Both the position numbers and the translations under genes were made by a program. A model generated the notes under the pieces. The model did not search any database. It was not told where the DNA came from and saw only the letters and a list, made by a program, of their open reading frames with translations. A stretch of DNA of 64,000 nucleotides from NCBI GenBank assembly GCA_000004695.1, contig CM000151.3, forward strand, positions 5,504,001 through 5,568,000, given 5' to 3'. The stretch is from Dictyostelium discoideum. Its lineage: Eukaryota. Position 1 is the first letter of the stretch. The number at the start of each line of letters is the position of its first letter. Shown piece by piece: positions 52,745 to 57,178 of the stretch.

Positions 52745-52998
52745 TTAGCAATTCCATAATGGACGACTATAACTAAAGACTGAATATGGATTAATTGTAG
52801 TTTTATTTGATGAAAATTCTAAATTATTATTTTCATTATCATTATTAATTTTATTATTTAATGATTTTGATGAATTTGATAAAGAAATGATTGATTCTAA
52901 AAATAAAAAAAAAAAATAAATAAAAAAATGTTAATATAAATTTTTATTTTTATTTTTTGTTAATTAATTAAAAAAAATGTGTACATACTGAATAACAT
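52745..52998 (-). CDS. Candidate micro-gene, paralog 3 of the novel family, 53 aa. Two exons: 52998..52989 and 52896..52745.
   Basis: Exon 1 is ATGTTATTCA in an AAAATG context, followed by GTATGTAC. The intron is about 92 nt and ends in TTTTTAG. Exon 2 encodes (K)SIISLSNSSKSLNNKINNDNENNNLEFSSNKTTINPYSVFSYSRPLWNC*. The C-terminal ...Y-S-x-F-x-x-RP-x-x-x-C* is shared with the two plus-strand copies. Confidence 0.35.
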
Positions 52999-53967
52999 TT
53001 TAAAATTAAGTGTGTTAAAGTGTGGGATTTGGGGATATTAAAATTAAAGTAAAAACTTTTTTTTTTTTTTAATGAAACTATAGTAAACTAATATTAGTTT
53101 TAATAATATTTGTTTGTTATGATATTTTTAATATATTTTGAAATGATGATTAATAATTTTTTTTCATTTCTCTATTTATAGTTCCCCATTTATTACACAC
53201 CTAAATTTAGTTAAAAAATGATGTTTATTTGCCATGCTCAATGTATTCTTTGAATAAATTGTATGGTTTAAATTATTATATGGTATTTTGTAAGTAAAAG
53301 TTGATGCAAACAAATTTAATTCAAAATTAAATAAATTTTAAATGACTTTATAAATTTAATAAGATATTTTTTTAAATTTTATTTATAATTTTTTAATGAT
53401 TTCCGAGGTGACAGTTTGGTGATCATTTTATTTTTTTATTTTTTTTTATAAATTAAATATATGTACAACAAGTATAAATTTAATTATTTCATTAATTTTT
53501 TTATATATTATTATATAATTATTTTGTTTATATGATTTACTTGTTAAATTGATTAAAAAATAAAATAAAATAAAATTTTTTTTTTTTTTTTTTTTTTTTT
53601 GGAAAAAACACACTCACACAAGTAAAGATTTTATTTTATTTAATTTTATATTTTTAAAATTAATTTATTTAAATAAATAAAATTAAAAAAAATGTAAAAA
53701 AAAAGGGTGATAATTAATATAGTGTCATTGAATATTTACAAATTTTGAATTGAATGTTGACGAAATAATACTTGTTTCCAAAAGGACCAAAGAAATTATT
53801 TGAATTTATTGTTGGCATCATATCTAAAATATCAAATTGTTTAAAAAACATTGTTGTCGATATTATAAATTTAAATTTAAATTGTCAATTAATAAGAGTG
53901 TGGTGAAAAAGTTTTTATAATTTTTTAATTAAATTGATGTTTTCAATTTGGTTGACCCCATTTGTAT

Positions 53968-54048
53968 ATTGTATGGCACCATTTAATTGGATTTTAAAAA
54001 TCAATATTAGATTGTGTTGAGTTTAACTGTCCGATGGTGCCATACAAT
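53968..54048. repeat. Perfect 15-bp inverted repeat (ATTGTATGGCACCAT ... ATGGTGCCATACAAT) with a 51-nt spacer.
   Basis: Seen directly. The arms are GC-richer than their surroundings. Confidence 0.6.
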
Positions 54049-55640
54049 GATTTTAACAAATTTAAATAAATTTAATTTAGAAAAGATGTTTTTTCAATCA
54101 CTAGATTAATCAATGATATGATGATATCAACAATAATATATAATTCAATTATTCAATTATTAAATTTTTTAATGATGTTATCATTATTTTAATTTAAACT
54201 AATTGCATCATTTATTATAATGATTTCATTTTTTCAAACAAATCAAGAAAGGAAGGTAAATAATGTTGCTAGATATTTTTTATTTGTAAATTATCCCCAT
54301 TTATTAAACAATCATTAAATGATATCATATTTTTATTATTTTTATTATTTTTAAATAAATGACACCATTTTAAAGAGGATTGGATTATTATTATTTGTAA
54401 ATTGTTTTTAAAATCTATTATAAACCAATCCAATGATTAATTGATTATCAATGATAATAAAAAATTAAATAATAGATTATAATCTTTTAGAATTTATTTT
54501 TTATATTTTTATTTTTAATTTTATTATATTCTTTAATATTAATACTATTATTTTTTTTTTTTTTTTTTTTTTGTTAATTTCTTTTTTTTTTTTTTTTTTC
54601 ATTTTCATTTTTCATTTTCATTTTCATTTATCATATTTTCAAAAAATTTATTTAACTAGGTAACATCAATAGTCCATAATATTATTATTTTATATCAATT
54701 AAAAAAATAAAATAGGGAACTATAAAAAACATAAAATTCAATATGTTATAAAATTAAATTAATTTTCATTTCAACCTTCAGTTAATTAAAAATTAATGAT
54801 CACGAATAGTTTGTTTTTTAAAAGATGATAATTATTGGTATAAAAAAAAAAAAATAGGGTGATAAAAAAAAAGAATAAATTAAAAATATGAAAATAGAAA
54901 TTTTTAAAACACAAGATATGTTTTATAAAAATAAAAAAGGAAATATTTCAAAAACTATAACAAAAATGGAATATAAACAATTTCAATAACACATGTGGTA
55001 AAACTATATTTTAAAAAAAATTGGAATATTTTAATTTGTTCAACCACATTGAATTTTCCAGTCATATTAAAAAATAAAAATTATTTTATATGGTTGATTA
55101 TCATTTTAATATTATCTATTTTTAATCAATTTTCAATATCACCCACAAATCAATAAAAAATAAATAAATCAAGTTATAACATAAAATTTTAAAAAAAAAC
55201 AAATAAAATTATACCCTTGATAACATAATAAAACCGAATACTTTCCTTGTTGTTAAATGTGTGTGTGTGTGGGGTATATGTGTGAGTGTGTTAAAGAAAG
55301 TGTGGGAAGGAAAGTGTGGTTATTTACTTTTATTTTATATGATTATTTTATAAAAATCAAATTTAATTCAAAATTAAATAAATTTAAATTGTATTAGATA
55401 TGTTGTCAACACCCATTTTACAAATTATCAAATGAAATTAAAGAGGTATTAAAGCGTCATTTCGAAAATCCAATAAACAACAATATAAATAGAGAATTTA
55501 ATATTTTTTTTAATCATTCAATTCAAAAACAATTAAATAAAAACATTAAAAAAAAACTATAGTTTTTTAAAAAATTATTTATTACATTATTTATTTAAAT
55601 AAAAACTTTCATTGTCAAATTTTTAAAATATTAAAATAAA

Positions 55641-55920
55641 ATGTTATTCAGTATGTGTTCTTTTTATTTGAAAATAAAATAAATTAAAATAAAATTAAAT
55701 AAAATATTAACATCTTTTTTTTTTTTCTAAAGAATCATTAAATCAATTATTCAACTCTTCATTATCATCAATGAATTCATCATCAGTTGTAAATTCATCA
55801 TCAACATTAAATGTTTCATTTGATTTAAATTCCATTCAAGGTACAAATAAATATTATAACAGTATTTTTACTCGTCCACAAATGTATCAATGTTTAAAAC
55901 ATATATATATTAATATATAA
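55641..55920 (+). CDS. Candidate micro-gene, copy 1, 65 aa. Two exons: 55641..55650 and 55733..55920.
   Basis: The start context is AAAATG. Exon 1 is ATGTTATTCA, with donor GTATGT. The intron is 82 nt with a polypyrimidine tract and acceptor CTAAAG. The product is MLFKSLNQLFNSSLSSMNSSSVVNSSSTLNVSFDLNSIQGTNKYYNSIFTRPQMYQCLKHIYINI*. A poly-A-rich 3' flank follows. Confidence 0.4.
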
Positions 55921-56909
55921 TTAAAAAAAAAAAAAAAAAAAATTAAAAAATTAACACTTGGTCGACTTAAACAAAACTGTATAACTTTATAAATAAAAAA
56001 AATTAATTTATTAAAAAAAAAAAAAAAAAAAAAAAACTATATTTATTTATTCTTTTAATTATTTTTCTTTTTTAAAAATTAAAAAAAAAAAAAGAAATTA
56101 TTATTTGAAATTATATTGTGTCTTTGTTAATCAATGAAAATAAATCATAACTTAATTTGGAGCTAATTAATGCTTTCTTATATTAAAATTCATTTCTTAT
56201 TTTTTATATTCATAACGTTTCTCAAAATCATTAGCATTATTTGAAATAAAATTTTAAATAAAAAATATGGCACATTATAAAAAAAAAAAAAAGTTAAATT
56301 GTTTTATTATAATTATTATTAGTTCATTCCAAATTCTAAAATGATAATTATAAAAAAAAATATATATATATGTTTATAAAATAAAAACCAGGAATAAAAA
56401 AAAATGATGAATTTCAGAGTAAAACCTATTTTTAACTGACTACACCATAAATAATAATATATAAAACTTGTGATATTTTGAATAAAACCGAAAACATTCC
56501 TTGTGATGTCTTTATTTTTTGTGTGAGTGTGTTAAAGAAAGTGTGGGAAGGAAAGTGTGGTTATTTACTTTTATTTTATATGATTATTTTATAAAAATCA
56601 AATTTAATTCAAAATTAAATAAATTTAAATTGTTTTAGATATGTTGTCAACACCCATTTTACAAATTAATAATTATAATCAAAGAGGTTTAATAAGTGTC
56701 ATTTCAAAAATCAATAAACAATAATATAAATAGAGAAATTAATTTTTTATTTTAATCATTCAATTCAAAAACAATTAAATATTAAACAACTAAAAACAAA
56801 AAAAACTATATTTATTTATTTATTTATTTATCTTTTTTAATAAAAAAAAAAAATTTCATTGACAAATTAATTAATTAATTTTAAAAACAAAAAAATAAAA
56901 AATTATAAA

Positions 56910-57178
56910 ATGTTATTCAGTATGTATTAATATATTTTTTAAAAATAATTAAAAAAATAAAAAAATAAAATATTAACATTTTTTTTTTTTTTTTCTTTTT
57001 TATAGAATCATTAAATCAATTATTCAACTCTTCATCATCATCATCAATGAATTCATCATCAGTTGTAAATTCATCATCATCATCAACATTAAATGTTTCA
57101 TTTGATTTAAATACCATTCAAGGTACAAATAAATATTATAACAGTATTTTTACTCGTCCACAAATGTATCAATGTTAA
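56910..57178 (+). CDS. Candidate micro-gene, copy 2, 60 aa. Two exons: 56910..56919 and 57006..57178.
   Basis: It has the same 10-nt exon 1 and GTATGT donor. The acceptor is TTATAG at 57004-5. The product is MLFKSLNQLFNSSSSSSMNSSSVVNSSSSSTLNVSFDLNTIQGTNKYYNSIFTRPQMYQC*. A 1-nt deletion relative to copy 1 moves the stop to directly after Cys. Two in-frame Ser-codon insertions preserve the frame. Confidence 0.4.

Follow-up and report, generated by a model that had tools for sequence, protein, structure and literature searches.

The closest described relatives in kind of the genes treated here are the sigN genes of Dictyostelium discoideum. Vicente et al. 2008 (PMC2257962) reported 96 sigN-related genes, whose proteins are shorter than 120 amino acids (aa). 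A first-exon open reading frame (ORF) of 13 nucleotides (nt), one intron of 66-128 nt and a second exon were described for 89 of the 96, and a first-exon ORF of 10 nt for sigN132, sigN176 and sigN183. The sigN genes are clustered, notably on chromosome 2, have promoters with GBF-like G-rich boxes and are induced at 10-12 h in prestalk cells; the deletion of 13 of them gave no phenotype (PMC2257962), and neither did six more single knockouts (Wu et al. 2021, PMC8554618). Database entries of the Pfam family PF05710 ('Coiled') are named HssA/B-like proteins or HssA/2C/7E family proteins. In the present study, we analysed 64,000 nt of D. discoideum DNA (contig CM000151.3, positions 5,504,001 to 5,568,000; hereafter the window), in which three two-exon genes begin with the same 10-nt first exon, encoding M-L-F plus one nucleotide. 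We estimate a probability of roughly 0.85 that these three annotated genes belong to a coding, selected and developmentally induced family, hereafter the MLFKS family, that is most likely a divergent offshoot of the hssA/B-sigN superfamily.

Gene models, annotation and purifying selection

The original prediction described a 20-mer shared by three loci. The three occurrences were found at those loci, with a length of 19 nt instead of 20: AAAATGTTATTCAGTATGT is present three times in the window (G+C content 21.7%) against a chance expectation of 0.02, and none of 100 shuffles contained it three or more times. The 19-mer is the Dictyostelium AAAA-ATG start context followed by codons 1-3, one further base and the splice donor, and it is probably conserved because the start context, the first codons or the 5' splice site constrain every position. 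For the gene models, ATGTTATTCA served as exon 1, the donor was GTATGT, and the acceptor was the first AG past the polypyrimidine tract. This splice model gave GT..AG introns of 92, 82 and 86 nt and products of 53, 65 and 60 aa for copies 1, 2 and 3, respectively (Table 1). The predicted architecture of an MLF-plus-one-nucleotide exon, a GTATGT donor, an AT-rich intron and an in-frame second exon was thus recovered, with stops at 52745, 55920 and 57178, as was the predicted range of peptide lengths (53-65 aa). The complete copy 1 peptide is MLFKSIISLSNSSKSLNNKINNDNENNNLEFSSNKTTINPYSVFSYSRPLWNC; those of copies 2 and 3 read MLFKSLNQLFNSSLSS...YYNSIFTRPQMYQCLKHIYINI and MLFKSLNQLFNSSSSSS...YYNSIFTRPQMYQC. 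The N-terminus is shared as proposed, but the proposed common RPxxxxC ending is not uniform in spacing, since copies 2 and 3 have FTRPQMYQC and copy 1 has YSRPLWNC. Exon 2 of copy 1, like that of many paralogs, has no in-frame Met, so the spliced model is the only source of a start codon for these genes. The claim that a six-frame track shows nothing holds for copy 1 but not for the other two, as the plain ORF list includes exon 2 of copy 2 (55771-55920, 49 aa) and of copy 3 (57047-57178, 43 aa) from internal ATGs. Motif and regular-expression scans detected exactly three family members within the window; tblastn (poly-Asn noise) and loose blastn (78% A+T) were uninformative for this purpose.

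An exact-sequence look-up showed that the three spliced peptides are identical, over 100% of their full length, to the annotated D. discoideum AX4 proteins of DDB_G0275587, DDB_G0275825 and DDB_G0275827, which bears out the proposal of two-exon coding micro-genes with a 10-nt first exon. The reference gene models have the same sequences and exon boundaries as those derived from the sequence alone, with no differences. The genes are therefore not new, since the chromosome-2 reference annotation has contained these exon boundaries since the genome project. Their supposed invisibility to ORF finders applies to naive six-frame scans (copy 1) and not to the genome-project models. All three records are labelled 'hypothetical protein [Dictyostelium discoideum AX4]' and give no family name, domain or function, and in the literature searched we found no paper that names any gene of the family in its main text. 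Reading of the sequence alone can evidently yield correct gene models even with a first exon of 10 nt.

The earlier argument for selection was based on the alike exons and diverged introns of the tandem copies 2 and 3. The pattern itself is present, with 98% identity in exon 2 and 78% in the intron, and the exon-2 indels are in-frame TCA codons as described (TCA and TCATCA). However, a 169-nt non-coding block upstream is 96% identical, so the high exon identity mostly reflects a recent duplication, and the two genes differ by only 3 substitutions (1 synonymous, 2 nonsynonymous) besides two in-frame indels and a stop loss. It is the comparison with Dictyostelium firmibasis, and not that of copies 2 and 3, that upholds purifying selection on the coding sequence. 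At the syntenic D. firmibasis locus (L002), copy 1 has an ortholog that encodes 52 aa, and copies 2 and 3 together correspond to one gene, which encodes 56 aa; the two D. firmibasis genes begin with ATGTTATTCA followed by GTATGT, as in D. discoideum. Identity between the two species is 91-93% in exon 2, 67-83% in the introns and 51-76% in the flanks (91% in exon 2 and 67% in the intron for copy 1). All exon-2 indels are divisible by three. By the Nei-Gojobori method, copy 1 has a ratio of nonsynonymous to synonymous divergence (dN/dS) of 0.31, and copy 3 one of 0.22. Of the pooled substitutions, 16 of 34 are synonymous, with 20% expected (binomial p=3.4e-4). The conserved C-terminal blocks contain synonymous changes only, which for copy 3 extends over the last 25 codons. 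Seven D. firmibasis genes, the syntenic orthologs among them, have the same exon 1, a GTAWGT donor and the same reading frame. The same holds for the far more distantly related Dictyostelium purpureum: in its member DICPUDRAFT_154222, the 10-nt exon is identical, the donor is GTAAGT and the intron is 71 nt long. The three genes are protein-coding, consist of two exons, and their peptides are under purifying selection.

These data bear directly on the alternative that the gene models are artefacts and the conserved blocks non-coding, in the form of regulatory DNA, a non-coding RNA (ncRNA) or the end of a transposon or repeat. Such a reading could appeal to the shortness of the ORFs, which come without protein-level evidence, and to upstream non-coding blocks that are equally conserved. 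Besides the synonymous excess and the in-frame indels, it conflicts with the fact that three species and more than 20 paralogs have all retained the ATG, the donor and acceptor sites and the stop. An Rfam search of 52000-58000 at E<=1 returned no RNA family, only a chance sR5 match (18.8 bits against a gathering score of 40). We regard the non-coding reading as effectively refuted. A transposon or repeat terminus, named in the original prediction as a possible source of the 19-mer, was likewise rejected: the 19-mer has just three copies, each at a gene start, and a mobile element is excluded because the locus is collinear with D. firmibasis.

The MLFKS family and the tandem pair

The family was sought by a profile search of a 5.8-billion-protein collection and an exhaustive hidden Markov model (HMM) search of 1.84 billion representatives. 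The matches were solely proteins of 51-65 aa, aligned end to end over 42-63 aa (E 1e-11 to 1e-21), together with two N-terminally truncated D. firmibasis models (41-42 aa). The family is in fact larger than the three members first proposed: AX4 alone has at least 14 annotated genes of this kind, D. firmibasis has at least 9 and D. purpureum has 1. In AX4, DDB_G0275131, DDB_G0275135, DDB_G0275137, DDB_G0275175, DDB_G0275229, DDB_G0275231, DDB_G0275233, DDB_G0275587, DDB_G0275825, DDB_G0275827 and DDB_G0271318 are on the chromosome-2 record, and a chromosome record of 5.45 Mb carries DDB_G0286475, DDB_G0286477 and DDB_G0287205. In D. firmibasis, six members lie in tandem in a second cluster (L001). 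Neither search found members beyond group-4 Dictyostelium, to which the family is restricted. No significant Pfam match was obtained in an hmmscan of 21 members.

In the gene plan of the family, a first-exon ORF of 10 nt (ATG TTA TTC A, nucleotide-identical in the three species) is separated from a second exon by an intron of 71-122 nt in phase 1. The three window genes share with the other members ATGTTATTCA, a start of MLFKS[LI], a Ser/Asn-rich linker, a Pro preceded by R/K near the C-terminus and a length of 51-65 aa. In the family alignment, M-L-F-K-S is invariant or nearly so, the middle is variable and Ser/Asn-rich with one nearly invariant Asn, and the C-terminal region reads ...Y-N-x-x-F-[TS]-R-P, followed by 0-6 residues that are mostly aromatic or Cys; a C-terminal peptide is NKYYNSIFTRPQMY. 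AlphaFold2, run on the family alignment, predicted a helix at residues 2-11 only and disorder elsewhere, in a low-confidence model (mean predicted local distance difference test (pLDDT) score 60.6). A modestly new point is that these 'hypothetical proteins' make up a coherent family that is under selection, is induced in development and has a distinctive motif at the C-terminus.

In the D. firmibasis annotation (GCA_036169595.1), the family is wrongly modelled at L002:2964-2984 and 6001-6126 and at L001:2784-2912 and 7320-7933. The copy 1 ortholog is called as a 6-aa gene, RB653_002398 and RB653_002264 lack the overlooked 10-nt exon and hence begin at an internal Met, and the members at L001:3712, 7138 and 8301 are not among the called genes in the form described here.

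The window and L002 have the same gene order (PBP, BBE-type FAD oxidase, the small genes, Img2). Copies 2 and 3 both align to a single D. firmibasis segment and thus represent a tandem duplication of about 1.27 kb, promoter included, in the D. discoideum lineage. Within window positions 55905-55920, copy 2 has TTA where copy 3 and D. firmibasis have the stop TAA; copy 2 is 65 aa long because this change adds 8 unconserved codons (LKHIYINI). The stop loss may indicate relaxed constraint on the newer duplicate. Taken further, copy 2 could be a decaying duplicate on its way to a pseudogene, leaving only copies 1 and 3 functional, in keeping with the lost ancestral stop and unconserved 8-aa tail, an S-to-L change within the Ser tract, the lone D. 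firmibasis gene at this position and an entry in fewer expression lists than copy 3. We consider this improbable, as the ORF, start, splice sites and promoter block of copy 2 are intact, its promoter is 96% identical to that of copy 3, it is listed as up-regulated in cyclic AMP (cAMP)-pulsed suspension, and 3 substitutions between the copies are too few to show relaxed constraint.

The spacer of about 500 nt between the 3' end of copy 2 and the promoter of copy 3 (55943-56446) had no blastn counterpart in the syntenic D. firmibasis locus, and it may be an insertion or a fast-diverged piece of the duplication. Most of the 2.6-kb gap between copies 1 and 2 (53827-55158) did not align to D. firmibasis, except for 54345-54592 (69%), and it contained no ORF of 60 aa or more; judging by the accession numbering, the reference may hold another gene model, XP_643421, between the two copies. 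The remaining genes in Table 1 include the syntenic neighbours, all of ordinary kinds, and two genes of the hssA/B type. At 44353-44520, about 55 units of (GTT)n/(AAC)n follow one another without interruption, as is typical of Dictyostelium poly-Asn coding repeats; this tract was the main source of the low-complexity tblastn matches.

Table 1. Positions of the three MLFKS genes, their putative promoter elements and other genes in the window.
Feature	Position	Strand	Details
Copy 1, DDB_G0275587			XP_643420.1; Q86H87
Copy 1 AAAATGTTATTCAGTATGT site	52983-53001	-	
Copy 1 exon 1, coding part	52989-52998	-	ATGTTATTCA = M-L-F + 1 nt
Copy 1 intron	52897-52988	-	92 nt, GTATGT...TTAG, phase 1
Copy 1 exon 2, coding part + stop	52745-52896	-	53-aa product MLFKSIISLSNSS...YSRPLWNC
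Copy 1 putative core promoter, TATAAATAGAG then TTAATCAT	53170-53180	-	182 nt before ATG; conserved in D. firmibasis
Copy 1 28-mer CAAATTTAATTCAAAATTAAATAAATTT	53311-53338	+	inverted relative to copy 1
Copy 2, DDB_G0275825			XP_643422.1; Q553J1
Copy 2 AAAATGTTATTCAGTATGT site	55638-55656	+	
Copy 2 exon 1, coding part	55641-55650	+	ATGTTATTCA
Copy 2 intron	55651-55732	+	82 nt, GTATGT...AAAG, phase 1
Copy 2 exon 2, coding part + stop	55733-55920	+	65-aa product
Copy 2 conserved putative promoter region	55227-55545	+	
Copy 2 G/T-rich block	55258-55319	+	
Copy 2 28-mer CAAATTTAATTCAAAATTAAATAAATTT	55358-55385	+	
Copy 2 ACACCCA	55409-55415	+	GBF-type heptamer
Copy 2 TATAAATAGAG	55484-55494	+	
Copy 3, DDB_G0275827			XP_643423.1; Q553J0
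Copy 3 AAAATGTTATTCAGTATGT site	56907-56925	+	
Copy 3 exon 1, coding part	56910-56919	+	ATGTTATTCA
Copy 3 intron	56920-57005	+	86 nt, GTATGT...ATAG, phase 1
Copy 3 exon 2, coding part + stop	57006-57178	+	60-aa product MLFKSLNQLFNSS...YYNSIFTRPQMYQC
Copy 3 conserved putative promoter region	56481-56790	+	
Copy 3 G/T-rich block	56520-56560	+	
Copy 3 28-mer CAAATTTAATTCAAAATTAAATAAATTT	56599-56626	+	
Copy 3 ACACCCA	56650-56656	+	GBF-type heptamer
Copy 3 TATAAATAGAG	56725-56735	+	
Second hssA/B-type gene	34592-34990	-	93 aa, MTIIASISKIGNIKSSSSSSIGSGRNSAISFGSNKIACGECGG...SCGCN; about 18 kb from the MLFKS genes
Second hssA/B-type gene, exons	34978-34990; 34592-34860	-	first exon and donor ATGACAATAATTG/GTAAAG; 117-nt intron
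HssA/B-like protein 27 gene	41999-42387	+	97 aa, PF05710; about 10 kb upstream of copy 1
HssA/B-like protein 27 gene, exons	41999-42011; 42107-42387	+	first exon and donor ATGACAATCCTTG/GTAAAT, 13-nt ORF; 95-nt intron
PBP-family protein gene	50071-50523	-	syntenic in D. firmibasis
FAD-binding BBE-type oxidase gene	50964-52559	+	two exons; syntenic in D. firmibasis
Mitochondrial ribosomal Img2/L49-type protein gene	57616-57996	-	syntenic in D. firmibasis
Acidic low-complexity protein gene	58777-60858	+	693 aa; syntenic in D. firmibasis

Promoter elements and developmental expression

By sequence comparison, the three genes have a homologous putative promoter in common. In gene orientation, TATAAATAGAG is followed about 16 nt on by TTAATCAT, 157-185 nt 5' of all three ATGs; the 11-mer TATAAATAGAG of copy 1 recurs upstream of copies 2 and 3. 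Each gene has one copy of an AT-rich 28-mer, CAAATTTAATTCAAAATTAAATAAATTT, approximately 120-145 nt 5' of the TATA box, and the window contains no further copy. The 28-mer is kept at both orthologous D. firmibasis positions, with 0 mismatches at the copy 1 locus and 2 mismatches at the other, and is a candidate orientation-independent cis-element. Over about 250 nt 5' of copies 2 and 3, the conservation relative to D. firmibasis is roughly equal to that of the exon. The heptamer ACACCCA lies on the gene strand at -232 in copy 2, -260 in copy 3 and -262 in the D. firmibasis ortholog. When the published heptamer was scanned against an AT-rich background, GBF-type heptamers were found upstream of 9 of 11 family genes and in 33% of the background tiles; a plain count of G/T or C/A runs was non-discriminating (2.6/kb window-wide, mostly coding repeats). 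We also considered whether the conserved block upstream conceals an ncRNA (class I RNA or DUSE-type) and rejected this, as the block has no Rfam match and shows the canonical TATA and T-run layout. A further G/T-rich sequence, GTGTGTTAAAGTGTGGGATTTGGGG, is located at 53010-53035 (plus strand), 12 nt from the copy 1 ATG, in the presumed 5' untranslated region and in inverted orientation. Its 11-mer GTGTGTTAAAG is common to the promoters of copies 2 and 3, and the corresponding D. firmibasis site is G-rich with another sequence.

Expression was taken from supplementary files 2, 3 and 7 of Rosengarten et al. 2015 (PMC4403905). In file 7, the genes with differential expression at each time point are arranged on the sheets filter_UP, filter_DOWN, suspension_UP and suspension_DOWN; its columns were assigned via tab counts, and the resulting UP_Hr12_rapid entry of DDB_G0271318 agrees with the raw counts for this gene. 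Among the matches listed for each gene ID, copy 3 (DDB_G0275827) appeared in the filter list UP_Hr10_gradual, in the last long filter_UP column and in suspension_UP, and copy 2 (DDB_G0275825) in two suspension_UP lists from cAMP-pulsed suspension. The paralogs were up at 14 h (DDB_G0286475, DDB_G0286477), 16 h (DDB_G0287205), 18 h (DDB_G0275229, DDB_G0275175, DDB_G0275137) and 20 h (DDB_G0275231, DDB_G0275229, DDB_G0275137). For DDB_G0271318, the raw filter counts stayed at 0-3 (one 7) until 11 h, rose to 28 in both 12-h values and stood at 79-210 for 18-22 h; when suspension cells were pulsed with cAMP, this gene came on at 8-10 h and reached 204-323 reads (PMC4403905). From these lists and counts, the family therefore appears to be silent in growth, cAMP-inducible, post-aggregative and maximal at culmination. 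The published lists show transcription of the gene models, and the splice junction itself is not covered by them. In the available supplements of a cell-type RNA sequencing (RNA-seq) paper (PMC6198379) and a life-cycle proteome paper (PMC12821622), the genes were absent.

Relation to the hssA/B-sigN superfamily and possible function

The MLFKS genes resemble the hssA/B-sigN genes in several respects. Both have a micro first-exon ORF and one short intron, which for the window genes means 10 nt and 82-92-nt phase-1 introns in the same aligned codon. Both form tandem or inverted clusters, many of them on chromosome 2, and encode products shorter than 120 aa. G-rich GBF-type boxes and induction from about 10-12 h (copy 3 at 10 h, paralogs at 12-20 h) are further common features. 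The two groups also appear to resemble each other in an N-terminal third that is rich in Ser and has an [FYM]-x-x-N motif after it. In contrast, the MLFKS first-exon ORF of 10 nt is missing the Thr codon, and the MLFKS proteins are 51-65 aa long versus about 75-100. They are also without the Gly/Cys-rich half, the GSNS[IV]xCG motif and the C-terminal CGC, and they have a tail of their own, ...Y-N-x-x-F-T-R-P-x-M-Y-x-F/C. A looser likeness was noted, by description only, to SRCP1 (Wu et al. 2021, PMC8554618), which is also among the small, Ser-rich, developmentally regulated Dictyostelium proteins but is 88 aa long and a reported suppressor of polyglutamine aggregation. Single and multiple knockouts of the SRCP1 class gave no developmental phenotype, which suggests redundancy (PMC8554618).

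The conserved N-terminus of the hssA/B-sigN superfamily has the form M-T-[IL]-[FL]-x-S-I-S/C-x-[IL]. In an hhalign comparison of 21 MLFKS with 10 hssA/B sequences, residues 2-37 were aligned on 3-36 with E 0.0046 and a probability of 7.5%, values below accepted homology thresholds. The match nevertheless exceeds chance, its score of 18.6 comparing with 6.1 +/- 1.4 (maximum 11.5) for 300 column shuffles and 8.1 for the reversed controls. The alignment places the intron in the same codon and phase (M-L-F-K^S and M-T-I-F/L-x^S, with ^ for the intron), and it pairs the nearly invariant Asn of the MLFKS family with the Asn that is invariant in the GSNS motif of hssA/B. PF05710 was the only Pfam family matched by more than one member in hmmscan (2 of 21, best E 0.022).

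On balance, we take common descent of the MLFKS family with the hssA/B-sigN superfamily to be the more likely reading. Its possible, although less likely, competitor is an independent, lineage-specific and perhaps de novo family, in which the resemblance would be convergent or a general feature of Dictyostelium genes. Independence would have to accommodate the intron in the same aligned codon and phase, a 10-nt first exon that three accepted sigN genes also have, and an N-terminal alignment that beats 300 of 300 composition-preserving column shuffles and both reversed controls. It would also leave to chance the hssA/B genes 10 and 18 kb away in the same window, with an hssA ortholog about 10 kb from the MLFKS locus in D. 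firmibasis as well, and the similar induction window and promoter type. The alignment scores may, for their part, be inflated by Ser-rich low-complexity sequence.

Several further points favour independence or otherwise weigh against our overall interpretation. The PF05710 gathering threshold (21.4 bits) was not reached, with E 0.78 for copy 1 and no match for copies 2 and 3, and the hhalign probability is low, as given above. The two profile searches of the family retrieved no hssA/B protein at E<=10 or E<=1e-3. Composition differs, with 1.3% Gly and 1.2% Cys in the MLFKS proteins against 23.7% and 5.4% in hssA/B, and the C-terminal half is entirely different. No entry in the 96-gene sigN list fits the genes by chromosome, length and intron size: none on chromosome 2 combines 53, 60 or 65 aa with a 10-nt exon 1, and the paralogs likewise have no counterpart by length and chromosome. 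Regarding expression, copy 1 (DDB_G0275587) does not appear in any differential-expression list of PMC4403905, the assignment of reads to copy 2 or copy 3 is uncertain because exon 2 is 98% identical, and a DOWN-sheet entry is possible for genes with UP listings. Regulation by GBF is represented by motif matches only, and the structural model is of low confidence. The MLFKS genes are accordingly not filed as PF05710 members, given the scores below the PF05710 cutoff and the absent Gly/Cys-rich half.

Under common descent, the MLFKS offshoot would have retained from hssA/B-sigN the micro-exon together with the intron and an N-terminal portion of ~35 residues, with the Gly/Cys-rich half replaced. 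Transcription would start downstream of the core formed by TATAAATAGAG and the T-run, and the conserved G/T-rich and ACACCCA elements could mediate a post-aggregation switch-on by cAMP/GBF-type regulation. After removal of the phase-1 intron right behind codon 3, translation would yield intrinsically disordered Ser/Asn-rich peptides of about 55 aa with a putative N-terminal amphipathic helix, MLFKSLNQLF, of a type shared with hssA/B proteins. The C-terminal aromatic/basic motif N-K-x-Y-N-x-x-F-T-R-P-x-M-Y-x-F/C, the most constrained part, probably docks onto a partner. By analogy, the members probably act redundantly in the multicellular stage.

The same distribution of constraint, with a conserved N-terminus, a hypervariable middle and a conserved C-terminal block with an invariant Pro, could also be expected of precursors from which cleavage, for example near the invariant R/K-P, would free a short peptide that is bioactive or secreted and serves as a developmental signal. 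Late developmental expression and the staining of vesicles and the disruption of mounds by anti-sigN antibodies (PMC2257962) would suit this idea. We nevertheless judge it quite unlikely: neither a signal peptide nor a hydrophobic stretch is present, what follows R-P differs among members both in sequence and in length (0-6 residues), the adjacent genes do not include one for a processing enzyme, and the proposal is pure inference. An extended version, in which leader helix, spacer and released R-P block define a late (culmination-stage) class of signals in group-4 dictyostelids, derived from hssA/B-sigN by replacement of the C-terminal half, seems to us more doubtful still.

As a discovery, the three genes carry little weight, since they are already in the reference annotation and their architecture was described for the sister superfamily in 2008 (PMC2257962). 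A family-aware annotation would correct real errors in the D. firmibasis gene models. Knockouts of up to 13 genes have not revealed the function of the hssA/B-sigN proteins, with which the MLFKS family probably shares its origin. The short, strongly conserved C-terminal motif of the MLFKS branch may give a simpler handle on the function of these small proteins.

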